From an uncultured archaeon (lineage in GTDB: Archaea > Thermoproteota > Nitrososphaeria > Nitrososphaerales > Gagatemarchaeaceae), in the NCBI GenBank assembly GCA_963817525.1, contig CAWFOU010000008.1, positions 48,669 to 72,668 on the forward strand: a stretch of DNA of 24,000 nt, in the 5' to 3' direction. Positions 1,742 to 23,365 of this stretch are shown here, piece after piece. Made by a program: the position numbers and the translations under genes. Position 1 is the stretch's first letter. Every line of letters begins with the position of its first letter. A model generated the notes under the pieces. The model searched no databases. It was not told where the DNA came from and saw only the letters and a program-made list of their open reading frames with translations.

Positions 1742-2425
1742 TTAGACGGTCAGCGAAGGCTTTTCCTTCTTCGCCTTGTTCCAGTCGTCGAGGAAGCGCT
1801 TGAGGCCGATGTCGGTCAGCGGGTGCAGGAACATCTTCTCCATGACGTCAGCAGGCATCGTGCCGATGTCAGCCCCCAGCTTGGCGGCCTCGAGCACGTG
1901 GATCGGGTGTCTGATGCTGGCCACTAGGATCTCGGTCTTGAACTTGTACGTCGGGCTGTTCTTTATCTCGACGAGGTCACTGATCAAGGCCATACCGTCT
2001 TGGCCGATGTCGTCCAGCCTGCCGATGAACGGGCTGATGTAGGACGCTCCGGCCTTCATGGCGATTAGCCCCTGGACGGCTGAGAAGATCAGCGTCACGT
2101 TGATCGGTATTCCCAGCGAGCTGAGGGTCTTCGTCGCCTTCATCCCCTCGGGGATCATCGGGATCTTTACGACCACGTTCTCCGCCCAGGACTTGTTGCG
2201 CTTGCCCTCCGCCACCATTCCATCGTAGTCGGTGGAGATGACCTCGGCGCTCACCGGGTGGGGGTAGACCTCCTTGGCGATGGCCTTGATGGTCTCCTCG
2301 AAGTCGGCGCCTTCCTTGACGATCAGCGAGGGGTTGGTCGTGATGCCGTCGACGAGGCCCATCGCGTTGTACTTCTTGATCGAAGCAAGGTTCGCAGTGT
2401 CGAGATAGAACTTCAATTCGAGCAC
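1742..2425 (-). CDS. tal: Transaldolase / fructose-6-phosphate aldolase family (short type)
   Basis: Motifs FYLDTANLASIKK, GITTNPSL, VVVKIP (Schiff-base Lys context) and TLIFS. Last gene of the pentose-phosphate operon. The start is GTG 2425; TTG 2416 (giving MKFYLDTAN) is also possible. Confidence 0.9.
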   Translation of the reverse strand: MLELKFYLDTANLASIKKYNAMGLVDGITTNPSLIVKEGADFEETIKAIAKEVYPHPVSAEVISTDYDGMVAEGKRNKSWAENVVVKIPMIPEGMKATKTLSSLGIPINVTLIFSAVQGLIAMKAGASYISPFIGRLDDIGQDGMALISDLVEIKNSPTYKFKTEILVASIRHPIHVLEAAKLGADIGTMPADVMEKMFLHPLTDIGLKRFLDDWNKAKKEKPSLTV

Positions 2426-2463
2426 ACTTCCCAGATTTTTCTAATAAAGCTATCGGCGTTCGG

Positions 2464-3423
2464 CTACCGCTTCATCGCGATGGCCTGTCGGGCGGCTTCC
2501 TCGATGTGGGCGGCTGTAAGGCCGTACTTGTTGAGGAGCTCCTGGGCCTCGCCGCTCTCGCCGAAGGTGTCGTTGACGCCCACCCTCTTGAGAGGTATCG
2601 GATACTGGTCGGTTAGGACCTCTGCGACAGCGGAGCCCATCCCTCCCATGACGTTGTGCTCCTCCGCGCTGACCGCCGCGCCGCACTTTCTCGCGTATTT
2701 TAGTATCGTCTCTTGGTCGATCGGCTTTACCGTGTGGATGTCGATCACGCTCGCCTGGATGCCCTTGGTCGCCAGCGACTCTGCCGCCCTCACCGCTTCC
2801 GGGAGCATTATGCCGCAGCCGAAGAGCGCGACGTCGCTCCCCTCCCTGACGACGTTGGCCTGGCCTAGCTTGTACTCGAAGCCGCCCTCGTAGACGATGG
2901 GGGTGTTGGAGCCCTTGATCACTCCCCTGGTTATCCTGACGTAGAACGGGCCGGGGATGTCCGCGATGGCCTTGATTATCGCTTTGACCGCGACGGCGTC
3001 CCCAGGGACGACGACGCGCATGTGGGGCACCACCCTCATGAGGGCGATGTCCTCGACCTGCTCGTGCGAGCCTCCGTCAGGCCCGACGGTGATCCCTGCG
3101 TGAGAGCAAACCAGCTTGACGTCGAGGTCGGCATAGCAAAGCATGTTTCGTATCTGGTCGACGCACTTGCCGGGAATGAAGATCGCGTAGGTCCCCGCGA
3201 AGGCGACCTTCCCCCCGAACGCGAGGCCCGCGGCCACACCGACGAGGTTCTGCTCGGCGATCCCGAGGTTGAAGAACCGGTCTGGGTACTTGGCCCCGAA
3301 CATCCCCGACTTCATGGACTCTGTGGTGTCCGCTCCGAGCACGACGATGCGAGGGTTGCTCGCTCCTAGCTCTACCAGCGCTTCGCCGTAGGCGTTGCGC
3401 ATCGCTCCCATCTTCTCTAGCAT
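2464..3423 (-). CDS. Transketolase, C-terminal (pyrimidine-binding) subunit
   Basis: 319 aa with MRNAYGEALVELG, IAEQNLVGVAAGLA and SHAGITVGPDGGSHE motifs of the split transketolase C-terminal half. Confidence 0.9.
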   Translation of the reverse strand: MLEKMGAMRNAYGEALVELGASNPRIVVLGADTTESMKSGMFGAKYPDRFFNLGIAEQNLVGVAAGLAFGGKVAFAGTYAIFIPGKCVDQIRNMLCYADLDVKLVCSHAGITVGPDGGSHEQVEDIALMRVVPHMRVVVPGDAVAVKAIIKAIADIPGPFYVRITRGVIKGSNTPIVYEGGFEYKLGQANVVREGSDVALFGCGIMLPEAVRAAESLATKGIQASVIDIHTVKPIDQETILKYARKCGAAVSAEEHNVMGGMGSAVAEVLTDQYPIPLKRVGVNDTFGESGEAQELLNKYGLTAAHIEEAARQAIAMKR

Positions 3424-3424
3424 C

Positions 3425-4147
3425 TTAAATCGCCCTCCCTCCGGCTTCCTGTCTGGCCTTTTCCCTGAGTAACCCGACCGCCTTTATCGGGTCGGGCTTG
3501 TAGTAGACTCCTGCTCCCGCGACCAGCACGTTACCGCCGCGCTTCACCACGTGCCCCAGGGTCTCCAGCTCGACCCCGCCGTCTATCTCGATGTCGATGG
3601 GGAGGCCCTTGTCGTTGAGCATCTGGGTTATCTTCTCGAGCTTGGGCAGGACCTCCATTATCATGGTCTGCCCGCTGAAGCCCGGGTTGACGGTCATCAC
3701 GCACAGCGTGTCGAGCTTGTCCAGCCTCTGCTCGACCCAAGCTGGCATGTCGGTGGCGGGTTTGAGGGCGAGCCCCATCACCTTGCCCTTCGCGTGGACC
3801 TTGGAGTAGATCGCGTCGAAGCGCTCGCCCGTGAGCGCCTCCGCGTGGAAGCAGAAAAGGTCCGAGCCGGCGTCCAGGAACTTGTCGACGAACTTCTCCG
3901 GCTCGTCGATCATCAGGTGGGTGTCGAACTTCATGTCGGTCTTCTTCCTCAGGGCCTTTACCGTGCCAGGCCCGAAGGTGATGTTGGGCGCGAAGTGGCC
4001 GTCAATCACGTCGAGGTGCACCTGGTCAGCCCCGCCCTTGACCGCGACCTCGAGCGCGGCAGCGAAGTTGGACTGGTCCCCGCCCAGGATGGAGGGGGCA
4101 ATCTTGATCTTCCGCTTTATCGTCTCGAGTGGCATCGTCTTTTCCAC
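3425..4147 (-). CDS. rpe: Ribulose-phosphate 3-epimerase
   Basis: Motifs IAPSILGGD, HLDVIDGHFAPN, THLM, MTVNPGFSGQ and IEIDGG. A 1-nt gap separates it from the downstream gene, and it abuts the upstream stop. Confidence 0.9.
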   Translation of the reverse strand: MEKTMPLETIKRKIKIAPSILGGDQSNFAAALEVAVKGGADQVHLDVIDGHFAPNITFGPGTVKALRKKTDMKFDTHLMIDEPEKFVDKFLDAGSDLFCFHAEALTGERFDAIYSKVHAKGKVMGLALKPATDMPAWVEQRLDKLDTLCVMTVNPGFSGQTMIMEVLPKLEKITQMLNDKGLPIDIEIDGGVELETLGHVVKRGGNVLVAGAGVYYKPDPIKAVGLLREKARQEAGGRAI

Positions 4148-4972
4148 CTACTTCAGCTCCTTGTAGATGTCTTCCATCTTTTCCTTGGTGGGCGCCGTGC
4201 CGTGGTAGGTGGGCGACCACTCCATGAAAGAGATGCCCTTGCCCTTTACGGTGTGGGCGATGATCATCGTGGGCCTGTTCTTCACCATCTCCGCCGTGTC
4301 GAAGGCCTCTATCAGCTGCAGATAGTCGTAGCCGTCGACCTCTATGACGTTCCAGTTGAAGGCGCGCCACTTGGCCGCAAGCGGCTCGAGAGGCATGATC
4401 TGCTCGGTGAGGCCGTCCTGCTGGATGCCGTTCCTGTCGATCATGCCCACGAGGTTGTCGAGCTTGAACTTCGAGGCCGACATCGCAGCCTCCCAGACCT
4501 CGCCCTCGCCCTGCTCCCCGTCTCCCATCAGGACGTAGGTCCTGGTGGGCCTCCCGTCGAGCCTCGCCGCGAGGGACTGTCCCACTCCCACGGAGAGCCC
4601 GATCCCCTCGGAGCCCGCGGGCATCTCAACCCCGGGGATGTCCATGTCTGGGTGCCCTTGGAGGAGCGCCCCGAGCTTCCTCAGGGACTTTAGTTCGGAC
4701 ATGGGGAAGTATCCGGCCTGCCCGAGGATAGAGTAGAGCAGCGGGGCCCCGTGTCCCTTGCTGAGGATGAACCTGTCCCTGTCAGGCCACTTTGGGTTCT
4801 TGGGGTCGTGCCTGAGCTTGTAGAAGTACAGGGTGACCAGAAGCTCCACCGCGGAGAGGGAGCCTCCCGGGTGCCCTGATCCTGCCTCCGCGAGGGTCTC
4901 CAATATCACCTTGCGGGTGTTGCGCGAGATGTCCTGAAGCCTAGTGATTTCCTGCGAAGTAGCCATTCCCAT
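4148..4972 (-). CDS. Transketolase, N-terminal (TPP-binding) subunit
   Basis: 274 aa with SGHPGGSLS, ILSKGHGAP and GDGEQGEGEVWEA (GDG..EG TPP/metal motif). Matches the split transketolase N-terminal half. Confidence 0.9.
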   Translation of the reverse strand: MGMATSQEITRLQDISRNTRKVILETLAEAGSGHPGGSLSAVELLVTLYFYKLRHDPKNPKWPDRDRFILSKGHGAPLLYSILGQAGYFPMSELKSLRKLGALLQGHPDMDIPGVEMPAGSEGIGLSVGVGQSLAARLDGRPTRTYVLMGDGEQGEGEVWEAAMSASKFKLDNLVGMIDRNGIQQDGLTEQIMPLEPLAAKWRAFNWNVIEVDGYDYLQLIEAFDTAEMVKNRPTMIIAHTVKGKGISFMEWSPTYHGTAPTKEKMEDIYKELK

Positions 4973-4974
4973 CT

Positions 4975-6021
4975 CTATCGCCTCACCGGCATCTGGGAGA
5001 CGCGGCTGAGGAAGTCACCCATCGACTCTAGCCGTTTTTCCAAGTCCTCTATCGTCAGCGTCGACGTCCTGGGCTTCTCGCTCCGGACCGTCCCCGCGAT
5101 GTTGCTGAGGCAGGCGGCCTCCGTCGCCGTGCCCCCTGCGGCCACCGCGAGGGAGAAGACCCCGGTCATAACGTCCCTCACGCCGACCTTGTTGAAGAAG
5201 CTCTTCCTGCCGAATGGGAGCGGAAGCGTGGTTATCTGGTCGCGGTCGAAGACGGTCATCCCCTCCTCTCCGCGCGTGATCACGATCCCCTTGCAATCGA
5301 GCCTCCCCAAGAGGTTCACGCCCATGTTCCTGAGGCTGGTCTCGTTCACCATCGCCATCTGGGTGGCGTGGGTGGCCTCGCTGAGGTTCGACTTTAGGTA
5401 AGTCACGCCGCTGTAGTCCATGTAGTGCCTGTCCTTCGGCTGGGCGACCACGATCTTGCCCGCCTTCCTGGCGGCCGCGACCACGGAGCTGATTAGCGAG
5501 GAGGTGACGACTCCCCTGTCGTAGTCCGAAAAGACCACCGTGTCCACGTTGGGGATCTTTCCCTCGGCCGCCGTGGCCAGGGACTTCGTTATCGGGAGCG
5601 CGACCTCCTTCCTGACCTCCTGGTCGATGCGCAGATAGTGCAGCCTGTTGACCATGATCCACGTACGGAGAGAGCTGGGCCTGGTCTTGTCGACCACGAT
5701 CCCCTCCACGCTGACCCCGTTCCTTGCGAGGTCATCCTTCAGCCAGACGCCATAGTTGTCGTCGCCGACCATCCCTATGACGGAGACCTGCCCGCCGAGC
5801 GACGCGACCTCGTTGGCCAGGTTGGCAGCCCCGCCGGGGAGAAGCGTCTCGCCGACATAGTCTGCCGCAGGCACAGGGGCTTCTCGCGCGAGCTTCCTCG
5901 CCGAGACCTCCACGAACCTGCTCACGAGGAAGTCGCCGAGGACTAGCATGCGGCTGCCTTGGAATTTCTTGAGGAGTCCGTTCAATCCTTCATAGGAAAG
6001 ACCCGGCAAGTCCTGAACCAC
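4975..6021 (-). CDS. PfkB/ribokinase-superfamily sugar-phosphate kinase, RfaE/HldE domain-I-like
   Basis: Collinear with the heptose-7-P kinase domain as I recall it. Shared segments are MLVLGDFLVSRF..REAPVP..LPGGAANLANEVASLGGQVSVIGMVGDD, VVFSDYDRG, NLSEA and ITRGEEGM. The signature DxTGAGD reads NKVGVRD. GTG start at 6021. First gene of the PPP operon. Confidence 0.8.
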   Translation of the reverse strand: MVQDLPGLSYEGLNGLLKKFQGSRMLVLGDFLVSRFVEVSARKLAREAPVPAADYVGETLLPGGAANLANEVASLGGQVSVIGMVGDDNYGVWLKDDLARNGVSVEGIVVDKTRPSSLRTWIMVNRLHYLRIDQEVRKEVALPITKSLATAAEGKIPNVDTVVFSDYDRGVVTSSLISSVVAAARKAGKIVVAQPKDRHYMDYSGVTYLKSNLSEATHATQMAMVNETSLRNMGVNLLGRLDCKGIVITRGEEGMTVFDRDQITTLPLPFGRKSFFNKVGVRDVMTGVFSLAVAAGGTATEAACLSNIAGTVRSEKPRTSTLTIEDLEKRLESMGDFLSRVSQMPVRR

Positions 6022-6173
6022 GGGGCGCCAAATTGCAGGCCTGTTTTAAGCTTAACGAAGCGGAGCCCTGCCAGCCGCGTCCCTCCGCGGGACTCTGTCT
6101 TTTTTTGGCCCGCTGAATTGGTTCGACTGCTGTCGTTTGTCGGACGTTTCAAATCGCTTCACGACGATGAAAA

Positions 6174-6182
6174 CATAAATAA
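6174..6182 (+). promoter_or_regulatory. TATA-box-like element upstream of rbcL
   Basis: CATAAATAA is centred about 33 nt upstream of ATG 6211, in the AT-rich divergent intergenic region. The spacing fits a short-leader or leaderless archaeal transcript. Confidence 0.4.
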
Positions 6183-6210
6183 CCTATGACGCGACGAAAA
6201 AAGGGTTTAC

Positions 6211-7638
6211 ATGACAACAGAAGCCATGGTTGAAAGGAGATGGAGCGCCCCGAGCGTAGAGCACGACAGAGGGGACATATTCTCCACCACTCCCGACAAG
6301 GTAGACGTCGACAAGAACGTTCTGGCGACATTTTTCATCACGTGCGACCCTAGGGTCACCATCGACCAGGCCGGAGTCATCATCGCGGCGGAGCAGTCCG
6401 TAGGCACGTTCACGGACGTCTCTACGGCGACGGACCTCTCCACGAAGACAGCGGCCAAGATGTACTCTTACAAGTACGAAGACCCGTCAGGCGCGATGAA
6501 GCACTCGGGCTGGGTCAAGGTCGCGTTCCCGACCTTCCTCCTCGACCTGGACAACAGGGGGATCCCCGACCTGTTCACCTTCGTGACAGGAAACTGGATG
6601 GGTTTCACCCCGATTCCAAACTGCAAGTGGATAGATTTCACCCTCCCCAAGGACGTCTTGAAGCTCTTCAAAGGGCCAAAGTTTGGCGTCGAGGGCCTGA
6701 GGGAGATCGTCGGCACAACGAAGAGCCGGCGCCCCCACGTGGGGATCACAATCAAGCCCAAGATGGGCGTGACCGACCAGGGAGCAGCCCAGCAGTTCTA
6801 CGACGCAGCGATGGGCGGCGTCGACACCTTCAAGGACGATGAGACCTACTTCAACCAATGGTGCTCGCCGCTCCTCGACAGGGTCGCCAAGGTCTACGAG
6901 GCGCTCGACAAAGCCAAGTCGGAGGGCGCCCACCCAGGGGGCGAGTACATGTACGCGCCTCAGGTCACGGTGGACTCTGAAAAGTCGCTCGAGGTCGCGG
7001 ACAAGATGATCGCGCACGGTGCCAGGGGCCTGATGCTCAACATCATGGCGGCCTGGTACCCCGCGCTAAGGGCCCTCGCGGAGGACCCGAGCATCAACGT
7101 CCCGATCCACCTCCACAGGGCGTCGCACGCCTCCCTCACCCGCCACCCGAGGCATGGGATCAGCTTCAAGGTCATCGCCGGGCTGGGCAGGGTCGCTGGC
7201 GGGGACATGATCCACGTAGGGACCGCCAGAGGCAAGCTGGGAGACGCGATAAAGTTCGTCGAGATCCCCGAGATCATGGACGAGATGCAGCGCCCGAACG
7301 GGCACCTAAAGCCCATGATGGGCGTCGCCTCGGGAGGGCTCACGCCGAACAACTACCATTACTCCATAGACTTGATGGGCTTGGACATCCAGCTCCAGAA
7401 CGGGGGCGCGGTCCACGGGCACCCGTGGGGCACCAAGGCGGGCGCTACCGCTGCTAGGCAGGCAGTCGATGCGTACATGAAGAAGATCCCCCTTGAGGAG
7501 TACGCCAAGACCCACGCAGAGCTAGAGGCCTCTCTCCAGTTCTTCGGGCAAAAGTACGCCGTCGCGTCCGCGATGACCGTCGTACCAGAGCTCGGCAAGA
7601 AGGAGAGCGACTATAAGCACATGTTCCGCTCGGAGTAG
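6211..7638 (+). CDS. rbcL: RuBisCO large subunit, form III-like (bona fide carboxylase residues present)
   Basis: Motifs read directly: AAEQSVGTF (E60/T65), GNWMGF (N123), ITIKPKMG (T173/K175/K177), GGVDTFKDDE (K201/D203/E204), IHLHRASH (H294/R295/H298), MIHVGTARGKL (H327/K334), VASGG (S379-G381) and NGGAVHGHPWG. No small-subunit gene is nearby. Confidence 0.9.
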   Translation: MTTEAMVERRWSAPSVEHDRGDIFSTTPDKVDVDKNVLATFFITCDPRVTIDQAGVIIAAEQSVGTFTDVSTATDLSTKTAAKMYSYKYEDPSGAMKHSGWVKVAFPTFLLDLDNRGIPDLFTFVTGNWMGFTPIPNCKWIDFTLPKDVLKLFKGPKFGVEGLREIVGTTKSRRPHVGITIKPKMGVTDQGAAQQFYDAAMGGVDTFKDDETYFNQWCSPLLDRVAKVYEALDKAKSEGAHPGGEYMYAPQVTVDSEKSLEVADKMIAHGARGLMLNIMAAWYPALRALAEDPSINVPIHLHRASHASLTRHPRHGISFKVIAGLGRVAGGDMIHVGTARGKLGDAIKFVEIPEIMDEMQRPNGHLKPMMGVASGGLTPNNYHYSIDLMGLDIQLQNGGAVHGHPWGTKAGATAARQAVDAYMKKIPLEEYAKTHAELEASLQFFGQKYAVASAMTVVPELGKKESDYKHMFRSE

Positions 7639-7654
7639 AAAAGGGGCGATAAGA

Positions 7655-7825
7655 ATGAAGAACCACACAAAGGGCGACATCTTCTGCGAGTGCGGCGCGT
7701 GCCCCCACGACAACGCGCTCCAGTGCGCGGACTATGGGTGCACCTGCTGCATCGCGGGGATGTCGGGCAAGCCGTACGAGCTCCACTACCTCAAGAGCGT
7801 CGGCCCGCCCGCCACCAACTTCTGA
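7655..7825 (+). CDS. Small cysteine-rich protein (56 aa), below the ORF-track cutoff
   Basis: Hand translation: MKNHTKGDIFCECGACPHDNALQCADYGCTCCIAGMSGKPYELHYLKSVGPPATNF. 53 of the 55 codons after ATG end in G/C, matching the host coding bias. GGGG lies 8 nt upstream of ATG. The ORF starts 16 nt after the rbcL stop and is followed by a hairpin plus T6. Confidence 0.6.
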   Translation: MKNHTKGDIFCECGACPHDNALQCADYGCTCCIAGMSGKPYELHYLKSVGPPATNF

Positions 7826-7838
7826 GACGTACCGAATC

Positions 7839-7871
7839 GGGCCCAGTCTGGGCTCTCCTTCTCCATTTTTT
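7839..7871 (+). terminator. Hairpin plus oligo-T terminator candidate after rbcL and the small ORF
   Basis: GGGCCC-AGTCT-GGGCTC hairpin (7839-7855), followed by TTTTTT at 7866-7871. Confidence 0.5.
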
Positions 7872-8011
7872 AGAATCCCAATCAGATGCCGTGCTGGACC
7901 TTCGTAGAAAGTCGCCTGCTTTGCAAAGCCACCGAAGGCGGTCGCACACGGGACAGAGCCCCGGCTACGGGCTGAGAAACAGGTGCGCCTGCTTCGGCTG
8001 CGAGGGGGGCG

Positions 8012-8905
8012 CTACTTCTTCTTGATCGCTTCCGCGATGACCGGCGCCACGCTCACGAAGCTTATCGGCCCCGCGAAGGTGTCGGTCCCTACCACGCCCT
8101 CTATGTTGTTGCTGTACATCAGTGGGAGGGCGTTGAGGCTGAGCACTGGGTGGGTGCACCCCACGTAGATCTTGCGAGCCCCCGCCTTCTTGACGAGGTT
8201 CGCTGCCTCCACGATGGTGTTGCCCGTGCTGATGATGTCGTCGATGATTATGGCGTCCCTGCCCTTGACGTTGACGCCTTCGCCGCCCCTGACCTTGACT
8301 TTGACCTCGGTCGAGGAGAACCTCGTCTTCTGGAGGATCGCGTAGTCGGTCTTAATCTTCGCGGCGGCCACCTTCGCCCACTGCTCGGACTCGTCGTCGG
8401 GGCCGATGATTATCGCGTTCTTCGGCGTGAATATCCTGTTGATGTATTCGGCGATGTATGGGACCGCGGTGAGGTTGGTCGCGGGGATCTTGAACACTTC
8501 CTTGAGGGACGGGACCCTCTGGAGGTGGACGTCGATTGTGAATATCCTGCTAGGGCCTGCCTGCTCGAGGAGCTTGGCCACGAGGTGGAAGCTCAGCGGC
8601 TCTCCTGGGTGGAACCTGGCGTCTTGCCTTGCGTAGGCAAAGTACGGGATGACGACGCTTATCGACTTGGGGCTCGCGCTCTTGAACGCGTCCATGGTGA
8701 GCAGGTACTCCATGATGAGCTCGTCCGGCCTACCCCCTAGCGGGTGGATGTAGACGATGTCCTGACCCTTTATGTCTTCTTCGATCTTGAGGTACTGCTC
8801 GCCGTCCGGGAACCTTTGTCTCTTGACCTTGCCAAGCTTCGCTCCGGTTAGGAGCGACGTCCTGACTGCTAGGGTCTCGCCTGCCGAACCTCCAAAGATT
8901 ATCAT
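8012..8905 (-). CDS. prs: Ribose-phosphate pyrophosphokinase (PRPP synthetase)
   Basis: Motifs FPDGE, YFAYARQDARF and the PRPP-binding loop DAIIIDDIISTGNT. Lies 16 nt downstream of the R15P isomerase gene. Confidence 0.9.
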   Translation of the reverse strand: MIIFGGSAGETLAVRTSLLTGAKLGKVKRQRFPDGEQYLKIEEDIKGQDIVYIHPLGGRPDELIMEYLLTMDAFKSASPKSISVVIPYFAYARQDARFHPGEPLSFHLVAKLLEQAGPSRIFTIDVHLQRVPSLKEVFKIPATNLTAVPYIAEYINRIFTPKNAIIIGPDDESEQWAKVAAAKIKTDYAILQKTRFSSTEVKVKVRGGEGVNVKGRDAIIIDDIISTGNTIVEAANLVKKAGARKIYVGCTHPVLSLNALPLMYSNNIEGVVGTDTFAGPISFVSVAPVIAEAIKKK

Positions 8906-8921
8906 TTTTACTCGTTCTCGC

Positions 8922-9971
8922 TTAACGGGCGCCGGATTTCGCCTGGGCGCCTTCGGTGTACTGGTAGAGCTCCTTCATCAGCGAGAAGACCGCTCCGGGC
9001 GGCACGATGCCCTTCTCGGTGACGTAGAAGTCGATGTATTCCGGTGGGGTGACGTCGAAGACAGGGTTGCTGAACTTCACCTTGGGGTTGTTCGCGCTCC
9101 ATTCCTTCGAGGCGATCTCCGTGTAATCCCTCTCCTCGATGTCTACCAATTCGCCGTTCAAGGTCTTGAAATCGAGCTTATAAGTTTCAGCGGCCACGAT
9201 GAAGTTTACCCGCGCCTCGTGTGCCATCGTCGCGACCTGCGAGGTCCCGATCTTGTTCACCAAGGCCCCGTTCACCGCTATCGCGTCGCAGCCTACCACG
9301 GCCTTGTCGGCGTGTGCCATGTTCACCCTGCAGGCAGAGTCGCAGATGAGGGTGGTGTCGATCCCATAGGCCGCGAGGGCCGCCGCGGTCTTGTGGCCCT
9401 GGAACTTGGGCCTCGTCTCGTCGCAGAACACCTTGATGCCCTTGCCCATGTCGTAGGCCTTCTTCAGGATGCTCATGGCGGCTTCGCTGTTGCAGTGGGT
9501 GATGATGATGTCGCCGTTCTTGACCCGCCTTGCTCCTATCTCTCCGATGAGCTTTACGGCCTCCACGCTGGAGATGAGGAAGTCGTTCGCGGTGTTCACG
9601 GTCGCGTTCCTGATCTCCTCGACCGTGGCTCCCGACTCGAAGGAGGTCCTGCCTCCATAGAGCACGTAGTTCACGCCGTTGGGGAGGGAGACGGCGGTGG
9701 GCCTAGCAGACCTGAGCTTCTCACCGGCCTTTAGGACGAGGGCCCAGTATTCCCTGGAGTTCTTGGCCTTGGCCTCCTTCGCGTAGTCCCTGAGTGCCTG
9801 TGCGGCGTACCTCGCGATGCGGCCCGCACCGTGGACTCGCATGGACTTTAGGTTGTCATAGGCTTCGTCTACGGTGACTTTCTGGAATTCTTCCTTGCCT
9901 TCCTTTAGTGTCTCCACGTGAACCGTTTCGCCTTCATGGGAGCTTATATATGTATTACCCGCGAAATTCAT
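8922..9971 (-). CDS. eIF-2B alpha/beta/delta-family protein, ribose-1,5-bisphosphate isomerase-like
   Basis: Motifs MRVHGAGRIAR, ARPTAVSL, IITHCNS (Cys), VVGCDAIAVNGALVNKIGT (Asp) and FIVAAETYK. The RuBisCO context supports R15P isomerase rather than a translation factor. The N-terminus is about 30 aa longer than I expect, so the true start may be internal. Confidence 0.8.
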   Translation of the reverse strand: MNFAGNTYISSHEGETVHVETLKEGKEEFQKVTVDEAYDNLKSMRVHGAGRIARYAAQALRDYAKEAKAKNSREYWALVLKAGEKLRSARPTAVSLPNGVNYVLYGGRTSFESGATVEEIRNATVNTANDFLISSVEAVKLIGEIGARRVKNGDIIITHCNSEAAMSILKKAYDMGKGIKVFCDETRPKFQGHKTAAALAAYGIDTTLICDSACRVNMAHADKAVVGCDAIAVNGALVNKIGTSQVATMAHEARVNFIVAAETYKLDFKTLNGELVDIEERDYTEIASKEWSANNPKVKFSNPVFDVTPPEYIDFYVTEKGIVPPGAVFSLMKELYQYTEGAQAKSGAR

Positions 9972-10003
9972 GTCTTACTCGTCGGCGAGAAAATTCGTCT
10001 GTT

Positions 10004-10020
10004 GTCGTCGGCCAGACGAC
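10004..10020 (-). terminator. Hairpin immediately after the arsC stop (terminator candidate)
   Basis: On the minus strand GTCGTC-TGGCC-GACGAC, followed within about 10 nt by AATTTTCTC. It sits between arsC and the R15P isomerase start. Confidence 0.35.
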
Positions 10021-10419
10021 TCAGCCGAGCGATGAGACCTTCATTTCGACCTGGTCCCGGATCTTCCGGACCTGCTCGATCGTCTTCCCCTTCGGGTCCT
10101 CTATCTCCCAGTCGACGAGCTTCTTCTGCATCTTGGCGAGCATCGGCTTGGGGCAGACCTCCTCCACCGAGCAGCCCATGGTGAAGACGTGGGTCGCATG
10201 GTTGATCATCTCGGTGGTAAGGAGCTTGGGCTTGGCCGAGGACACGTCGATCCCCTTCTCCAGCATCGCCTTGACCACGGTGGGGTTGACGGCTTCGGTG
10301 GGCATCGTCCCCGCGCTGGTCGCAATCAGGCCCCGCTTCTTCGCGAAGGCCTCTGCCATCTGGCTCCTGCCCGCGTTGTGGACGCACACGAAGAGGTAAG
10401 AGCCCTCAGACCTTGGCAT
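10021..10419 (-). CDS. arsC: Arsenate reductase, LMW-PTP / thioredoxin-coupled type
   Basis: CVHNAGRSQMAE contains the CX5R(S) P-loop, and there is a downstream Cys pair (MGCSVEEVCP). I place the start at ATG 10419 (MPRSEGSYLF), which follows GGAGGAGAAAGC. The track start at 10455 would overlap the aquaporin by 50 nt. Confidence 0.85.
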   Translation of the reverse strand: MPRSEGSYLFVCVHNAGRSQMAEAFAKKRGLIATSAGTMPTEAVNPTVVKAMLEKGIDVSSAKPKLLTTEMINHATHVFTMGCSVEEVCPKPMLAKMQKKLVDWEIEDPKGKTIEQVRKIRDQVEMKVSSLG

Positions 10420-11092
10420 GCTTTCTCCTCCAGACACCGAATAATAAACCAGCAAGCCCTGCGCCGACCAGTGGACCTATCAGATAGATCAGCAGGTTCC
10501 CGAGATATCCCGAGGACAACGCAGGACCTAGGCTTCTGGCGGGATTGAAAGAGGCCCCCGTGAGCGGACCGATCGCAAGGATCAGGACGAACAGCGTCGC
10601 GCCCACCAGGAGAGCCTGGGCCGCGGCCCTCTTGAGGAAGTGCGAGGCGGTGAGAGCGGCGGCCGCGAGGACGAAGGTGCCCGCCACTTCGAGGGAGACG
10701 CCTTCGGCCTGGGAGATCCCGAACCCGAGCTTCGTCGACCCCAGGGACGCGTTGGATGCCATGCCGCTGAAGATCGCCTTGAGGGTAAGGCCTGCCGAGA
10801 GCGCGCCGAGAAGCTGGAAGAAGACGTAGGGGAAGACAAGCTCCTTCTTGAGCTTCCCCGAGAGTGCGCTCGCGAATGTTATCGCCGGATTGATGTGCGC
10901 GCCGGAGTGCTTCCCTATGAGGAGGATCATCGCGCCAACGGTAAGACCGAAGACCAGGGCGACCGTCGCCAGTTGCTCGAACGACGAGAGGTGAGGAACC
11001 AAGGGAACGAGCACGACCGAACCGGCGCCGAAGAATACGAGGAGATAGGTTCCCAGCATCTCGGACAGGCAGCGTCGGCGAAAGTCCGACAC
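10406..11092 (-). CDS. MIP-family channel (aquaporin/aquaglyceroporin, AqpM/AqpS-like)
   Basis: Two NPA boxes (SGAHINPAITFA and GASFNPARSLGPA) and six hydrophobic segments. I place the start at GTG 11092 (VSDFRRRCLSEMLGTYLLVFFGAGS, a typical aquaporin N-terminus) with AAGGGAG upstream. The track maximum extends to TTG 11191. Confidence 0.85.
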   Translation of the reverse strand: MSDFRRRCLSEMLGTYLLVFFGAGSVVLVPLVPHLSSFEQLATVALVFGLTVGAMILLIGKHSGAHINPAITFASALSGKLKKELVFPYVFFQLLGALSAGLTLKAIFSGMASNASLGSTKLGFGISQAEGVSLEVAGTFVLAAAALTASHFLKRAAAQALLVGATLFVLILAIGPLTGASFNPARSLGPALSSGYLGNLLIYLIGPLVGAGLAGLLFGVWRRKHAKV

Positions 11093-11233
11093 CGCCAGCG
11101 GGGCTCCCTTCCCTAGCGAAGGGTTCAGGCTCGGCCCTGCCCCTGAACGGTCGGCGGGGGGCGGATGCAGCAACGACACGTGCGACAACAAGACTCCGTC
11201 ACTATACCCTCATGGATCGGCGGCTCTGGGTAG

Positions 11234-11467
11234 TTATCGGCCGCATTCGCCGAGGTATCCGCCGTCCGCCTTCCTCACGAGCCCGTGCACCACCAGCCTC
11301 CGGACGATCCTGGACACTATCTCCTGGTGGAGGGAGGTGGCCTCCTTGAGCCTGCCGAACGAGACCGGCTCACTAGAACTGCAGATCACGTTGCAGACCG
11401 TGGACTCGCGATCCGTGAGCTGGACGCAGTCCGCCTTCATGCAATCGTCGACGCAGCAGGCCATCAT
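11234..11467 (-). CDS. Small winged-helix regulator with Cys-rich N-terminus (ArsR-like role inferred)
   Basis: 77 aa. The N-terminus MMACCVDDCMKADCVQ...CNVIC has six Cys in 29 residues. It is followed by an HTH-like segment, FGRLKEATSLHQEIVSRIVRRLVVHGLVRKADGGY. Lies upstream of aquaporin-arsC on the same strand. Confidence 0.5.
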   Translation of the reverse strand: MMACCVDDCMKADCVQLTDRESTVCNVICSSSEPVSFGRLKEATSLHQEIVSRIVRRLVVHGLVRKADGGYLGECGR

Positions 11468-11550
11468 GTGCGATTAACGGATGGTCTCTTCGACCTATTT
11501 ATTGACTGCCCAAAGGTTGCCGTTCTTATAGTCCGTCAGGCTATCGGCAT

Positions 11551-12735
11551 ATGGCCGAAGATAAAGGCGGCGCGGACTCGGTAAGGCTCACCTGGCCTCC
11601 GCTGGAAGAAGACCTGAGGAGGCTCTACGTTGTGGAGAAACTTTCCGCTTCGAAGATCGCAAAGGCGTATGGACTTCAGTATGCTAGCGAAAAGACCGCG
11701 GAGTCGACGATCCTCCACCATCTCAAGAAAAACGGGATAGCCAGACGAGACGCGGCAGCGCACATCAGGAAGGTTACCCAGAAGATGGCGGACGAGTGGG
11801 TCGTCAGGTATCAGAAGGGCGAGTCGCTGAAACAGATTGCGGGGGATGCGGTCGACGCGGTCACGGTCTTCAACCATCTCCACAAGCGGGGCCTAAGCCT
11901 CAGGGACAAGGTCGAGGCGCAGATCAAGGCCGTAACGATTCACGACAAGAAGCCGTTCCAAGGGAGTCCGGCGGATCGGGCGTATCTCGCAGGAATCACG
12001 AGGGGAGATTTCTGGGCGGGACGACACGGACGTGCAGTTCGAGTTAGGCTAGGCACAACTCATCCGGACATGGCCGCCCTGTTTCGTCTGCTATTTGGGT
12101 GGCACGGTCCGATTTACGAATATCCAAAGCCCGCCGCGCTAACGGAATACGAATGGATACTAGATTGCGATCTTGACTCAAGTTTTGAGTTTCTGATACA
12201 ATCCAAGGCTGACGTATCCGAGATCATTCGCAGTTCTGACCTATTCATGAGCTTCCTCGCGGGCTTCTTCGACGCCGAGGGCACGGTCTACTTCCACAAG
12301 AAACGTAGCGGCGGTGCGTTTGAACTGGCCATGGCAAATACGGACGAAGGACTCCTCCGCGACATTAGAGACGAACTGGCGCGACGTGGATTCGCGGTCA
12401 AGCTCGAGCGAACTAAACAATATCGAGCCGAAGCCGTCAGGCGCGGAATAAAGAACCCCGGCGAGTTCATTTGGCGGATATTAGTTTGGCGATTTGAGGA
12501 CGTTCGCAGGTTGATGACGGCGATGCCAATTAGACACGCGGAGAGGACGGCCAAGTTTGCGATTGCGCTCAAGCTCGGCTACAGACCAAGGCACGAGGAT
12601 CGTGAGAGAGTATTGATTGAATGGAGGTCCCTAAGGACCTCGATTAGAACTAGCCGCGACGCCTACGTCGCCCAAGCGAAGGCAATTTGCAGCTCCAAAG
12701 AACGAAGTAAGTTTAAAACATACTCAGTTCAGTAA
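11551..12735 (+). mobile_element. Free-standing LAGLIDADG homing-endonuclease-family gene with N-terminal HTH repeats
   Basis: 394 aa with two LAGLIDADG motifs (YLAGITRGDF and FLAGFFDAEGTV). Two HTH-like units precede them (LSASKIAKAYGL...LKKNGI and ESLKQIAGDAV...LHKRGL). Visibly more AT-rich than its neighbours (26/60 G+C in 12181-12240 against 39/60 in 12841-12900 of nuoD). Confidence 0.8.
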
Positions 12736-12754
12736 ATAGAGTCTGAAACAAGCT

Positions 12755-13876
12755 CTAATGGTCTGCCTCGACCGGCCAATAATTCAATCCCCAGTACACT
12801 GGTGGGATGTCTGCGACGTGTATCCCCCTGAGCAGGTGGGGCATCACCCGCATGTTTTTGAAGCTCGGGACGCCGAGCTTGAGCCTGTAGGGCCGGGGGC
12901 TCCCATCGCTGACGATGAAGTAGCTCATCTCGCCGTGCGCGGCCTCCGTCCTCGCGTAGACCTCGCCTGGGGGGACGCGCGGCGCGGGGCCGAGCTTGAG
13001 CCTGACAGGGCCCGGCGGGATGTTCTTGAAGGCCTGCCTGAGGATCTTGACCGATTCCCTCATCTCGTGGAGGGCGACGTAGGCCCTCGCCCAGCAGTCG
13101 CCCTCGTTCTGCGAGGCGACCGAGAAGTCGAACTCGGGGTAGGCGCCGTAGGGCTCGGCCCTCCTGATGTCGTGCGCCACCCCTGACGCCCTCAGGACGG
13201 TGCCCGTCGCGCCAAGCCTGATGGCGTCCTCCTTGGTCAGCACGCCGACGCCCTTCGACCTCTCCTCCCAGAGGGGGTTCTTGAAGAATATCTTCTCGTA
13301 CTCGTCCATCCTCTTCTCGAACCAGTCGAGCGTCTCGAATGCCTGGGTCGTGAGGCCCTCGGGCATGTCGTTCCTCACCCCCCCGGGTATGATGTACGCG
13401 AAGGTGACCCGGGCGCCCCCGATCCTGGCTGCGATGTCGATGAAGAGGTCCCTGTCTCCCATGCACCATGTGATCATGGTGGTCTGCCCCACGAAGAGGC
13501 CGAGGATGCCCAGGTAGTACTCGTGGGAGATTATCCTGTTGAGCTCCGCCATTATGACCCGGAGGTACTCGGCCCTGGGCGGGATCTTGTTGTTCATGAG
13601 CTGGTCGACCGCGAGGGAGTAGGCGAAGAGTATCCCGGAGCTGTCGAGGATGACTGGCCTCTCGAGGTGGGGGACGTTCTGGATGTAGTTCCTGTACTCG
13701 CACATCTTCTCCTCGCCCCTGTGCACGTAGCCGGGGTCGGGGTCCGCCCTGACCACATAGTCCCCGTCGAGCCAAAGGCGGATGCGAAAGTGGCCGGCCC
13801 CCGGGTGCTGTGGCCCGAGCGAGACGGCCATGATCTTGTCCGAGTCCGGCGAGTACTCGAAGGCTGCGGATGCCAT
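12755..13876 (-). CDS. nuoD: NADH:quinone oxidoreductase subunit D (49-kDa/Nqo4 family)
   Basis: Motifs LGPQHPGAGHFR and GYVHRGEEK, with the C-terminal ...PPVYWGLNYWPVEADH. 373 aa. Starts 3 nt after the nuoC stop. Confidence 0.92.
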   Translation of the reverse strand: MASAAFEYSPDSDKIMAVSLGPQHPGAGHFRIRLWLDGDYVVRADPDPGYVHRGEEKMCEYRNYIQNVPHLERPVILDSSGILFAYSLAVDQLMNNKIPPRAEYLRVIMAELNRIISHEYYLGILGLFVGQTTMITWCMGDRDLFIDIAARIGGARVTFAYIIPGGVRNDMPEGLTTQAFETLDWFEKRMDEYEKIFFKNPLWEERSKGVGVLTKEDAIRLGATGTVLRASGVAHDIRRAEPYGAYPEFDFSVASQNEGDCWARAYVALHEMRESVKILRQAFKNIPPGPVRLKLGPAPRVPPGEVYARTEAAHGEMSYFIVSDGSPRPYRLKLGVPSFKNMRVMPHLLRGIHVADIPPVYWGLNYWPVEADH

Positions 13877-13879
13877 TGC

Positions 13880-14470
13880 CTATCGCCCCGGCGAGACGTA
13901 GTCCTTCCTCAGCGGCGGGATGTCGTTCCAGTCCTCGGGGAGGAGCAGGCGCCTCAGGTCTGGGTGCCCCTCGAAGACTATCCCCAGCATCTCGAAGGTC
14001 TCCCTCTCGTGGTACTCGGCGCCGGTCCAGACGCCGACGAGCGACGGGGCCTTTGGGGAGTCCTCCCTGGGCAGCCGCTCCGCGAGCTGGACGACCAGGT
14101 CCTGCTGCCCGGGGACCGAGAGAGAGCCCACGAAGTAGATGACCTCGAACTCCTTCAGCGCGATGTAGTCCGTCCCGCCCACCACGTTGAGGTGGTCGAA
14201 CCCCAGCCCGTCCCGCACGTAGATGGCGACGTCCTTGATCTGGGCGGGAGAGGCGGTGACCTTCACCCTGTGCGGCTTGACATAGTCCACCTTCGTGGAT
14301 GGGAACTTCGCGACTATCTTGTCGGCGAGCGACTTGGTCCTGGACGTGTCAGGAGGAGCGGGGGCGGGCGCTGGAGCCGCAGGGGGAGCCGGGGCTGGGG
14401 CGGCGGCGGGAGGCTGAGGGGGAGCGGGGGGCGGGGCGCTGGCGTTCTGGGCGGGTTGGGCTGGTTGCAC
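13880..14470 (-). CDS. nuoC: NADH:quinone oxidoreductase subunit C (30-kDa/Nqo5 family) with Pro/Ala-rich N-terminal extension
   Basis: Contains AEYHERETFEMLGIVFEGHPDLRRLLLPEDW. GTG start at 14470 is preceded by GAGAGGAATTGTGA, an SD-like sequence. The first ~40 residues are almost only P/A/Q. Confidence 0.88.
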   Translation of the reverse strand: MQPAQPAQNASAPPPAPPQPPAAAPAPAPPAAPAPAPAPPDTSRTKSLADKIVAKFPSTKVDYVKPHRVKVTASPAQIKDVAIYVRDGLGFDHLNVVGGTDYIALKEFEVIYFVGSLSVPGQQDLVVQLAERLPREDSPKAPSLVGVWTGAEYHERETFEMLGIVFEGHPDLRRLLLPEDWNDIPPLRKDYVSPGR

Positions 14471-17395: not shown

Positions 17396-17760
17396 ATCTC
17401 TCGCTTCCCCGCCAGGTGCACGGTGAGGCCCATGGGTATCAGGAGGGCGCCGACGAACACGAGCATCATCCAGCTTGAGAGCTGCCCCAGGGCGAGCGGC
17501 TGGTAGGCCACCGCCCAGGCGAAGAGGAACATCGCCATGACGTCGAAGACGACGAACAGCAGGAGATAGGCGTAGTACTGCATCATGAAGTGCATCTTCC
17601 CCCGTCCTCGGGGGACTTGGCCGGCCTCGAAGGTCTCGTTCTTTATCGGGTTGGGGCTCTTGGGGGCGAGGATCCTCGGGACGATGAGCATTATGCCGGT
17701 GAAGAGGATGCCCACGCCGCCCATAACGAAGACGGCCGCAACGTTCCCAAAGATCGCCAA
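17389..17760 (-). CDS. nuoA: NADH:quinone oxidoreductase subunit A
   Basis: 123 aa with three hydrophobic helices and a conserved-type loop, [11 protein letters not shown] start at 17760 (in-frame stop 4 codons upstream). First gene of nuoABCD. Confidence 0.85.
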
Positions 17761-17798
17761 CCTTGGAACTCTCTAGAAGATTTGGAAAGCCGTCGAGC

Positions 17799-17806
17799 AT
17801 ATTTAA
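17799..17806 (-). promoter_or_regulatory. TATA-box-like element for the nuo operon
   Basis: The minus strand reads CCTTAAATATG. TTAAATAT is centred about 43 nt upstream of the nuoA start. Confidence 0.4.
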
Positions 17807-18281
17807 GGCTTGGCGGGCTTGGCTCTGGTAACTCTTCGGCGCATGGGCGATTCTATACCTCTCCAAGATATTTGGGATGTGTCAAGTTGCTCTGCGCGCG
17901 GGGAGAAGCTCCGCACACCCGAAAGGGGGATGCCGAGCACAGGACTTACGGTCGGATGGAGAGGGACGTGAATTCACCCCCTCGGACTATCCAGGCGGGG
18001 GCGGTCAAGGTTCGACCGTTCCCGTCCCTTGTCGTAGGACGCTACCGTTTCTACACTGGGGAAGAAGGGCTGGCAGGTGAGGCAATGAAGGGGAACGGGA
18101 CGACTACCCTAACCCTTCGAGTCGACGCCAGCAAGGCGACTAGTCGGCATGAGCCGAGGAGTTGCCAGAACCTCGGGGTCGACGGCAGGTCGCGGAGCCC
18201 TCGCTCGTCGCTCTTGCCTTTAACCCCGAAACGCGGCGAAGCGAAACACATTTAGTGACGGTCCGCTCGGCTTGAAGGAGC

Positions 18282-19997: not shown

Positions 19998-20075
19998 GGG
20001 CCCGTAGCTCAGTATGGACAGAGCGAACGCCTCCTAAGCGTTAGGCCGAGGGTTCAAATCCCACCGGGCCCGCCA
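19998..20075 (+). tRNA. tRNA-Arg (anticodon CCT), genomically encoded CCA
   Basis: Hand-folded cloverleaf. Acceptor GGGCCCG/CGGGCCC, D arm GCTC..GAGC, anticodon arm AACGC-CTCCTAA-GCGTT (CCT), T arm GAGGG-TTCAAAT-CCCAC (one A-A mismatch), discriminator G, then CCA. Confidence 0.88.
20059..20075 (+). repeat. Direct repeat copy 1 (tRNA-Arg 3' end), att-like
   Basis: TCCCACCGGGCCCGCCA is identical to 23898-23914. Confidence 0.75.
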
Positions 20076-22281: not shown

Positions 22282-22944
22282 GTGACCATGCGAAGGCTGG
22301 TCGTCGAGCTACCGGTTGAGGACGTGATTGGGAAGGGCTCGCACTCGCCGATGGCGATGATAGACTCGGCGGAGGTAGTCCAGATTTTCAAGCAACGCAG
22401 GGGAGAGTTCGAGGGAATAGTGAAGGTGTCTTTCAAGACGCATCCTCCCCCGAAGCTCAAGGACTTGTTTCCTGGTGTCGAGGCGGAGGCCACGCTGCTC
22501 AACGAAAACGACGCGACCGGCGAGCGGGCCTACTTCGTCAAGGTCAGGGTCGCGAACCCCAAGCGTCAAGTGTTTTCCTTGGGCGAGGTTTCAGGAGGCT
22601 ACGTCGCGACTCCCTTTGAGATAAGAGGCGGGATGATTAGACTCAACTTCATCGGCAGCGCCCTAGAAGTAAAGAGATTCATGAAGGTCATCGACAAGAA
22701 GTGGCCCCACTACAAGGTTGCCTCCCTCACGGACGCGAGCTTTTCTCTCGACTCACCGTTGGGAGCTCTGACGGAGAAGCAACGCAGGGTTCTGGTGACG
22801 GCCTTCAACCTCGGCTACTACGACATGCCGAGGAAGGTCGACGGTGAGGAGCTCGCGAGGAGGCTCAACCTTGGGGCCTCCGCTCTGGTGGCGCACAGGA
22901 GGAAGGCCGAACGGAGGATTCTCGCGAAGATAATCAATGGCTGA
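22282..22944 (+). CDS. HTH_10 (bacterio-opsin-activator-type) DNA-binding protein
   Basis: C-terminal LTEKQRRVLVTAFNLGYYDMPRKVDGEELARRLNLGASALVAHRRKAERRILAKI is the classical HTH_10 module. Confidence 0.8.
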   Translation: MTMRRLVVELPVEDVIGKGSHSPMAMIDSAEVVQIFKQRRGEFEGIVKVSFKTHPPPKLKDLFPGVEAEATLLNENDATGERAYFVKVRVANPKRQVFSLGEVSGGYVATPFEIRGGMIRLNFIGSALEVKRFMKVIDKKWPHYKVASLTDASFSLDSPLGALTEKQRRVLVTAFNLGYYDMPRKVDGEELARRLNLGASALVAHRRKAERRILAKIING

Positions 22945-23101: not shown

Positions 23102-23365
23102 ATGACTGAAGCATCGGAGCTTCGCACGGTCACCGTATCCGAAAAGGGCCAGGTGGCCATCCCTGTCGACATCAGGAGGAGGCTGAACATTCGAAAGGGC
23201 CAGACGCTGGTGCTTCAAGTCAGCGACGATAAGCTGCTGATCGCCAAGTCGGAGGAGGTCTCGAAGAAGATGAGGGACGAGTTTGAGCATCTTCTCAGAC
23301 TCTCAGAGAGAAGCGCGAAGGAGTTATGGGAGAACGAGAAGGATGCAGTCTGGGACAGCGCTTGA
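23102..23365 (+). CDS. mazE: SpoVT/AbrB-domain antitoxin (MazE-like)
   Basis: VTVSEKGQVAIPVDIRRRLNIRKGQTLVLQVSDDKLLI swapped-hairpin motif. Overlaps the toxin gene. Confidence 0.8.
   Translation: MTEASELRTVTVSEKGQVAIPVDIRRRLNIRKGQTLVLQVSDDKLLIAKSEEVSKKMRDEFEHLLRLSERSAKELWENEKDAVWDSA

Follow-up and report, generated by a model that had tools for sequence, protein, structure and literature searches.

Form III RuBisCO (the carboxylase/oxygenase of ribulose 1,5-bisphosphate) takes part in the AMP/pentose-bisphosphate pathway of Thermococcus kodakarensis, reportedly worked out by Sato and colleagues in 2007 and by Aono and colleagues in 2015. How such an enzyme is supplied with ribulose 1,5-bisphosphate (RuBP) without phosphoribulokinase (PRK) or AMP phosphorylase has been an open question since a route through phosphoribosyl pyrophosphate (PRPP) was proposed in 2004. 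That route, of Finn and Tabita, is summarised in the passages of Wrighton et al. (PMC5113843) cited here. [quoted passage not shown] The same scheme appears for heterotrophic marine Thaumarchaea in the cited part of Aylward and Santoro 2020 (PMC7300363). Gagatemarchaeaceae are Thaumarchaeota of acid soils without ammonia oxidation, and the cited sections of Sheridan et al. 2023 (PMC10640624) report type III rbcL and R15P isomerase in only three topsoil genomes of the family, adjacent to prs, with all three genes missing from the other members. The rbcL synteny table in that work uses genome AcS1-13 as its reference, and the family is described there as lacking phosphofructokinase (PFK) and as possibly using the PPP for sugars. 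In the excerpts of Sato et al. 2022 (PMC9700705), the pentose-bisphosphate pathway counts as an alternative to the non-oxidative PPP. Here we analysed a 24,000-nucleotide stretch of DNA from an uncultured archaeon (contig CAWFOU010000008.1, positions 48,669 to 72,668; hereafter the window), in which genes for a form III-type RuBisCO (rbcL), R15P isomerase (e2b2 family) and PRPP synthetase (prs) lie beside an operon of the non-oxidative PPP. The idea of a route from the PPP through PRPP to RuBisCO is already published for the phylum, as is the rbcL-e2b2-prs adjacency, and the gain is comparative support and not a new concept. What is added here is a repeated, independent linkage to PPP genes, the exclusion of a neighbouring kinase from the RuBisCO module, a kinase subfamily with a GVRD motif, and an orphan Cys-rich partner of RbcL.

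Gene families were assigned with Pfam and NCBIfam models on the long open reading frames (ORFs) between positions 1742 and 9971. An original prediction, made from the letters of the window, had described a five-gene operon that is divergent from rbcL plus a small Cys-rich ORF and convergent with an e2b2-prs pair, and every gene it named was recovered where it had been placed (Table 1). The operon runs kinase-TktN-Rpe-TktC-Tal with intergenic gaps of 0–38 nt and holds a split transketolase (Tkt), transaldolase (Tal) and ribulose-phosphate 3-epimerase (Rpe) of the non-oxidative PPP. No ribose-5-phosphate isomerase was found within the window.

Loci carrying the kinase were sampled by scanning one genome per species with the kinase alignment and by tblastn with all window proteins, and for the wider RuBisCO comparison the RbcL and Prs homologues were traced into their own contigs. 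The core of RbcL and the e2b2-prs pair was found in five different arrangements, four of which were beside Tkt and Tal, in some cases with Rpe (Table 1). The pair was always co-directional and its genes were 14–25 nt apart (14 nt in L092 and L097, 16 nt in the window, 25 nt in L089), except in L096, where the gap was 146 nt. In one close relative of the window (L006, metagenome-assembled genome (MAG) palsa_1368, 6035–14300), rbcL-cys56 was inverted relative to the window, and nine genes followed one another in one direction as e2b2>prs>rbcL>cys56>kinase>tktN>rpe>tktC>tal. Because the core recurs beside Tkt and Tal in several differently arranged loci, this clustering exceeds chance. The PPP genes next to the module were non-orthologous across the locus types (fused Tkt 36% and Rpe 30% identical to those of the window, RbcL 76–82%; Tkt and Tal taken together, only 36–58%), and the PPP operon pre-exists at the same Gagatemarchaeaceae locus without RuBisCO. 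On both grounds, the gene comparison indicates that the module and PPP genes were joined more than once, and the recurrence speaks for the PPP and RuBisCO being functionally linked. A chance landing of the module beside a housekeeping PPP operon, with no functional coupling and with Prs acting only as the housekeeping PRPP synthetase, would agree with the adjacency in Gagatemarchaeaceae, which is limited to one narrow clade (kinase identity at least 85%), and with L096, where the trio stands without PPP genes. We nevertheless regard an absence of coupling as quite improbable, because the module has PPP genes as neighbours in four locus types of different organisation, in some of which these genes are non-orthologous, and Prs accompanies e2b2 in every type.

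The kinase-TktN-Rpe-TktC-Tal operon itself was kept in about 70 Nitrososphaerota loci, with kinase identities of 58–90%. RbcL, Prs and e2b2 adjoined it only in the closest clade (L006–L009, L012 and L020; kinase at least 85% identical), and 65 species-level loci had the operon with none of the three within 10 kb. The RuBisCO-bearing MAGs include ERZ25039507 (contig_23274), CAWCYD010000003.1 (2.06 Mb), CAWISW010000002.1 and CAWFZY010000007.1; OY969807.1, OY970211.1 and OY970160.1 are RuBisCO-less relatives at chromosome level. In 55 of the loci without RuBisCO, the slot upstream of the kinase was taken by a conserved gene of 169 amino acids on the same strand, which was missing from the clade of the window; because this gene fills the slot elsewhere, the RuBisCO block looks like an insertion beside a resident PPP operon. 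We propose that the RuBisCO module (rbcL-cys56 plus e2b2-prs) is horizontally mobile and sits immediately upstream of that operon. The 169-amino-acid protein (e.g. L042, 2937–3446; L004, 9302–9790) gave a weak helix-turn-helix-like match and has no assigned function. About 5 kb upstream of the kinase, a sugar-1-phosphate nucleotidyltransferase gene (PF00483) was conserved in 55 loci (e.g. L011, 3118–3834), which may be a hint of NDP (nucleoside diphosphate)-heptose synthesis or mere genome collinearity.

Table 1. Genes of the cluster in the window and arrangements of the RuBisCO module in related loci (> and < mark gene direction; identities are to the window's proteins)
Feature or locus	Position	Strand	Assignment or arrangement	Model match or identity
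Tal	1742-2425	-	short-type transaldolase, last operon gene	TAL_FSA PF00923 1.4e-56; TIGR00875 289 bits > cutoff 246
TktC	2464-3423	-	transketolase C-terminal half (pyrimidine-binding + C-terminal domains)	PF02779 3.6e-38; PF02780 1.3e-33
Rpe	3425-4147	-	ribulose-phosphate 3-epimerase	PF00834 6.9e-59; NF004076 202 bits > cutoff 165
TktN	4148-4972	-	transketolase N-terminal half (thiamine-diphosphate-binding domain)	PF00456 5.1e-54
Kinase	4975-6021	-	PfkB-family HldA/RfaE-domain-I-like sugar(-phosphate) kinase, first operon gene	PF00294 2.3e-21
RbcL	6211-7638	+	large subunit (475 aa) of a divergent form III-type RuBisCO	PF00016; PF02788
cys56	7655-7825	+	56-aa Cys-rich protein, 7 Cys; 16 nt after rbcL stop	
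Prs	8012-8905	-	ribose-phosphate diphosphokinase	PF13793; PF00156; PF14572; TIGR01251 283 bits > cutoff 113
R15P isomerase	8922-9971	-	e2b2 family	TIGR00511 376.5 bits > cutoff 314.1
L086			TktN>TktC>Tal>SDR>, <HAD, RbcL>cys56	RbcL 77%
L087			Prs>RbcL	RbcL 54%
L089-L091			Tal<TktC<TktN divergent from e2b2>Prs; HAD hydrolase by Tal; no RbcL within 10 kb	e2b2 77%; Prs 72%
L092/L093			RbcL, HAD, SDR epimerase, Tal, fused Tkt, Rpe, e2b2>Prs within 9 kb	RbcL 76%
L096			RbcL>e2b2>Prs co-directional; no PPP genes	RbcL 54%
L097/L098			<Prs<e2b2, Rpe>, <Tkt, Tal>, SDR>, RbcL>	RbcL 82%

As the best explanation of the cluster, with a confidence of about one half, we favour a RuBisCO shunt that is fed by the PPP through PRPP and has the kinase outside the module. 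Tkt, Tal and Rpe, together with a ribose-5-phosphate isomerase from elsewhere, would interconvert hexose or triose phosphates and pentose phosphates, and Prs would turn R5P into PRPP. Removal of the terminal phosphate of PRPP would give R15P, a step that might fall to the HAD hydrolase seen in other types of cluster or to an enzyme encoded at an unlinked site. R15P isomerase would then form RuBP, from which the form III-type RuBisCO would produce two 3-PGA with CO2. The sequences show which genes are present, their catalytic motifs, the structure of the operons and the recurrence of the association; we infer the direction of flux, co-regulation and, above all, the PRPP-to-R15P step. The net result would be a shunt without PRK and AMP phosphorylase and, because the family is reported to lack PFK, it would give pentose-phosphate carbon a route into lower glycolysis. 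If it operates, abundant archaea of acid soil and peat would re-fix CO2 during sugar catabolism and bypass the missing PFK; the RuBisCO shunt of developing green seeds is an analogue. The PPP-fed carboxylating shunt of the original prediction is retained in so far as a conserved RuBisCO/R15P isomerase/Prs unit beside PPP genes fits the order R5P, PRPP, R15P, RuBP, 3-PGA; the role given there to the kinase is not.

Several points weigh against the shunt. Its PRPP-to-R15P step has no identified enzyme, and abiotic dephosphorylation of PRPP, suggested for thermophiles, is judged unlikely at low temperature in the cited passages of Wrighton et al. (PMC5113843). Were an AMP phosphorylase encoded at another place in the genome, the classical pathway would again be complete, and Prs would supply it via AMP. 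Both Prs and the enzymes of the PPP belong to housekeeping pentose metabolism, and part of the clustering could be general 'pentose' co-regulation. Finally, the trio of L096 occurs without PPP genes, and L089 has PPP genes and e2b2-prs without RbcL within 10 kb.

In the clusters without the kinase, genes for a HAD-IA hydrolase and an NAD-dependent SDR epimerase/dehydratase were found between Tal and RbcL (L086, 2942–4549; L092, 3598–5203; L089, 5388–6092; L097, 7781–8719). The HAD hydrolases were orthologous to one another (44–53% identity), and no curated cutoff was reached by HAD or SDR. The best weak matches of the HAD proteins were to phosphoglycolate phosphatase-like and CTE7 models, and the RuBP phosphatase model gave 32 bits against a cutoff of 330. 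The hydrolase could be the PRPP-to-R15P enzyme or a phosphoglycolate phosphatase. The small recurrent gene set and its few uncharacterised neighbours (HAD, SDR, the GVRD kinase and the Cys-rich peptide) make the PRPP-to-R15P step directly testable.

Other sources of RuBP were searched for in the window and in flanking sequence of about 5 kb to the left (L002) and about 8.5 kb to the right (L094), giving a total of about 37 kb inspected. Domain scans of plausible ORFs found no PRK and no AMP/thymidine-phosphorylase domain in the window, as the original prediction had claimed, nor in the two flanks, where it had named such a gene as counter-evidence. A DeoA probe (E. coli; tblastn) matched neither the window nor any of 93 related loci, each covered to ±10 kb, and no nucleoside phosphorylase or ADP-dependent kinase of ribose 1-phosphate (R1P) was found nearby. 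These negatives bear on classical AMP/pentose-bisphosphate salvage, in which an AMP phosphorylase, or a nucleoside phosphorylase plus an R1P kinase, encoded elsewhere would supply R15P, Prs would serve only AMP formation via adenine phosphoribosyltransferase (APRT), and the PPP adjacency would reflect shared pentose metabolism. The two enzymes that mark that pathway, RbcL and e2b2, both seem functional; the inspected sequence is a small share of a contig that is 518 kb long or longer, and a variant running from PRPP to AMP to R15P is discussed, in the literature excerpts cited, for candidate-phyla-radiation (CPR) bacteria and for Thaumarchaeota. Set against this, no DeoA-like gene was present in the window, the flanks or the related superclusters (±10 kb), marine Thaumarchaeota with the same RbcL/R15P isomerase/Prs set are reported to lack AMPase in the cited sections of 10.1101/2019.12.22.886556, and the tight, conserved e2b2-prs operon suggests that the direct partner is Prs. 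We consider salvage unlikely, though it is the main rival reading.

A low-molecular-weight (LMW) phosphatase gene at 10021–10419 was tried as the PRPP-to-R15P phosphatase and rejected, since it has the CX5R P-loop and Cys pair of the ArsC type, overlaps an aquaporin gene and is present in only some relatives. This ArsC-like gene (minus strand; P-loop CVHNAGRS) overlaps the MIP aquaporin gene (10406–11191, minus strand) by 14 nt; e2b2, encoded on that strand too, has it as its direct upstream neighbour. The two are probably an arsenic-resistance pair, found at the same spot in only some relatives (L006 and L009).

The kinase was compared with known sugar kinases by sequence and by fold. It scored 225.6 bits against the RfaE domain I model TIGR02198, under the cutoff of 345, and its best sequence match in the PDB was HldA (4e84; 1e-29, 27% identity). 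Foldseek with its AlphaFold model (mean pLDDT 85.8) returned HldA, a heptose-7-phosphate kinase, as the top structure (TM 0.80/0.88), followed by E. coli Pfk-2 and ribokinases. The di-Gly motif, the NxxE motif and the catalytic Asp were retained. In contrast, the GAGD of the PfkB anion hole, which the nearest bacterial relatives (32–34% identical) carry, was replaced by GVRD in 62 of 63 full-length family members, and on this motif GVRD marks a distinct kinase subfamily. A Pfam scan found no GmhA, GmhB or adenylyltransferase gene in the operon. Thus the protein is like HldA in its best sequence and fold matches and its conserved motifs, but unlike it in the sub-cutoff score, the invariant GVRD, the setting among Tkt, Rpe and Tal, and the absence of these partner genes; by score, motif and partner genes it falls outside the HldA heptose-7-phosphate kinases, with a fold that is HldA-like. 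Its candidate substrates would be a heptose-7-phosphate-type or other PPP sugar phosphate, or R5P, R1P or ribulose 5-phosphate (Ru5P), or else it may serve as the 'missing' PFK or sedoheptulose-7-phosphate (S7P) kinase of the family. In public gene calls the kinase starts at 6009.

HldA phosphorylates the anomeric C1 hydroxyl of a sugar omega-phosphate, formally the same reaction as the conversion of R5P to R15P. Hence the kinase might feed RuBisCO directly, by acting on C1 of R5P (or C5 of R1P) to give R15P or, as a PRK analogue, by turning Ru5P into RuBP, and Prs would then be dispensable. The HldA family assignment by sequence and fold would suit such a role, as would its place as first gene of an operon making R5P and Ru5P, the presumed 190-bp divergent promoter region that kinase and rbcL have in common in the RuBisCO clade, and the unusual, invariant GVRD of a distinct subfamily. 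In the cited part of PMC9700705, haloarchaeal PfkB R1P kinases share operons with the R15P isomerase, and for many sugar kinases of archaea no substrate has been assigned. However, 65 loci have the kinase operon with no RbcL or e2b2 nearby, in a family otherwise reported to lack both genes in the cited sections of PMC10640624. The kinases of the RuBisCO clade differed from the other 65 by only five fixed differences, none within the catalytic motifs, and the kinase was missing from all other RuBisCO-PPP clusters compared. It is also no orthologue of the known R1P kinases: the ATP-dependent R1P kinase model NF053626 matched residues 63–117 only, with 32.8 bits against a cutoff of 330. A direct supply of RuBisCO by the kinase is accordingly a long shot.

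Because the operon is kept in 65 loci without RuBisCO nearby and the kinase is missing from the other RuBisCO clusters, the kinase is a resident of the PPP operon, presumably with some sugar phosphate as its substrate, and not a component of the RuBisCO module. The original prediction had tied the module to Tkt/Tal/Rpe, to Prs and to the unusual kinase. The first two ties stood, as they recur with non-orthologous PPP genes; the third gave way to the same 65 loci, the five non-catalytic differences and the absence from other clusters. It is conceivable, but very doubtful, that the GVRD kinase is a pentose-phosphate 1-kinase that converts R5P (or R1P) to R15P, feeding a Prs-independent route from R5P through R15P to PRPP in the Gagatemarchaeaceae reported to lack prs, and R15P isomerase and RuBisCO in the RuBisCO clade. 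If this were true, the kinase would give the PPP a direct enzymatic link to RuBP, with no need for PRK, AMP phosphorylase or PRPP hydrolysis.

RbcL scored 284.6 bits against the type III model TIGR03326, under the cutoff of 497.45. Its top PDB matches were the form III enzymes 2cwx, 1geh and 3a12 (P. horikoshii, T. kodakarensis), above form I and form II/III. When aligned to the P. horikoshii form III enzyme, all catalytic motifs were present (ITIKPKMG, FKDDETY, HLHRASHA, IHVGTARGKLG, VASGGL and LQNGGAVHGHPWG), and we take KPK, the carbamylated Lys in KDDE, HR, H...K, SGG and GG in them to be the residues with catalytic roles. Relatives were 72–90% identical, then 54–56%, then at most 48%, and by these identities RbcL belongs to an isolated divergent clade. 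No RbcS domain was found in a Pfam scan of the window's ORFs. A RuBisCO-family protein 47% identical to that of the window was seen in L088 (5303–11296), divergent from an FGGY sugar kinase; another FGGY kinase, two aldolases of the DeoC type and a gene like fucose isomerase are its neighbours, a different sugar-metabolic context of a RuBisCO homologue.

The small Cys-rich ORF of the original prediction proved to be real, being conserved after rbcL in the clade. This gene, cys56, followed rbcL in L006–L009, L012 and L020 (75–100% identity) at a distance of 12–16 nt, and a homologue 54% identical was found in L086 (6131–6289). The pattern CxCxxCxH...C....CxCC, with 7 Cys and 1 His, was invariant. 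The protein matched no Pfam family, and among 1.84 billion representatives an exhaustive HMMER search turned up just two small homologues, besides two large proteins of repetitive, Cys-rich sequence that were taken as compositional matches. cys56 is thus an orphan family travelling with the RbcL clade, and from its Cys/His pattern it may be a metal-binding accessory partner of that clade. Another candidate for the small Cys-rich ORF, at 7690–8025 (111 amino acids), is Arg-rich, has no family, overlaps cys56 out of frame and has stop codons in relatives, and was rejected as spurious.

The divergent intergenic region between the kinase and rbcL (6022–6210, about 190 bp) contained, in an alignment of six loci, two conserved blocks like the TATA and BRE elements of archaeal promoters. 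One, CGTTAAGCTTAAAAC, lies about 25–30 nt before the kinase start, and the other, CATAAATAACCT, about 30 nt before the rbcL ATG; GGCGATTCG and GACAGGAGTCGAA were also conserved. These blocks would be separate promoters for the kinase operon and for rbcL.

The R15P isomerase matched the solved R15P isomerases 5yfj and 3a11 with E = 1e-90, and the solved enzymes of T. kodakarensis and P. horikoshii with E values of 1e-88 to 1e-90; its Cys (HCnS) and Asp (GcDa) aligned with the catalytic Cys and Asp of solved enzymes (HChS and GaDs). Prs was narrowly under the archaeal equivalog NF002095 (282.5 against 296 bits), and its motifs YARQD, DVH and DDIISTGNT were present. Tal has the motifs VSAEVIS and SPFIGRLDD, with Glu and Phe at the positions that presumably separate transaldolase from F6P aldolase (Gln and Tyr). 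The Rpe start was placed 12 nt later in the JGI gene call.

The window has a G+C content of about 60%, and an identical stretch is present on a 517,943-bp ENA contig and on a 15-kb JGI contig. On the ENA contig (L002), nuoD (2130–3226) and tal (13592–14267) were each called in two pieces; because both genes are intact in the window and on the JGI contig, these are likely assembly frameshift errors. The kinase homologues come from Nitrososphaerota/Thaumarchaeota/Nitrososphaerales MAGs of peat, permafrost, acid soil and Danish soils, among them AcS1-13 and other AcS/SubAcS genomes. The AcS1-13 contig (L010) carries a kinase 87% and a TktN 98% identical to those of the window. The source is an uncultured Nitrososphaerota archaeon near the published Gagatemarchaeaceae MAGs; from isolate names we infer that all these MAGs with kinase homologues belong to this family.

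Outside the cluster, a complex I operon has NuoA before, and NuoC and NuoD after, a NuoB-like ORF of 1119 amino acids (14507–17866, minus strand), in which Oxidored_q6 is in two stretches split by intein splicing, LAGLIDADG and Hom_end domains. A free-standing LAGLIDADG ORF of 394 amino acids (11551–12735, plus strand) lies between the aquaporin gene and nuoD, near the intein-bearing nuoB. An HTH_10 (bacterio-opsin-activator-type) regulator (22282–22944, plus strand) and a MazE/MazF toxin-antitoxin pair (23102–23693, plus strand) are also present. Rfam and tRNA scans of the window found nothing in the cluster, their sole match being tRNA-Arg(CCU) at 19998–20075 (plus strand).

Among known systems, the closest is the thaumarchaeal RuBisCO-R15P isomerase-Prs set. 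It shares the phylum with the locus described here, and in Sheridan et al. also the family and the rbcL/R15P isomerase/prs adjacency, as well as the route from the PPP to PRPP. The cited sections of Sheridan et al., Reji and Francis, and Aylward and Santoro do not describe the juxtaposition with Tkt/Rpe/Tal, its recurrence, the GVRD kinase or the Cys-rich ORF. The methanogen route from PRPP through R15P to RuBP (Finn and Tabita 2004, as summarised in the cited part of PMC5113843) likewise draws R15P and RuBP from PRPP made by Prs; there the dephosphorylation was suggested to be abiotic at high temperature, whereas a mesophilic lineage of soil and peat needs an enzyme. As in the T. kodakarensis pathway, R15P isomerase followed by form III RuBisCO would convert a pentose bisphosphate into two 3-PGA. 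In contrast to that pathway, neither an AMP phosphorylase nor a nucleoside phosphorylase nor an ADP-R1P kinase was found close by, the conserved partner is Prs, and the organism also has a non-oxidative PPP. The haloarchaeal non-carboxylating pentose-bisphosphate pathway, as given in the cited part of PMC9700705, offers an R15P isomerase operon with a PfkB-family kinase, and a parallel to the HAD hydrolase of the kinase-lacking thaumarchaeal clusters. It differs in having no RuBisCO, in an R1P kinase that the window kinase does not match (32.8 against 330 bits) and in a RuBP phosphatase that the HAD proteins do not match (32 against 330 bits). The reductive hexulose-phosphate pathway (Kono et al. 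2017, PMC5241800) depends on PRK in the cited account, and neither the window nor the flanks searched hold a PRK domain; yet it too places an archaeal form III-type RuBisCO in sugar-phosphate metabolism and not in nucleotide salvage.

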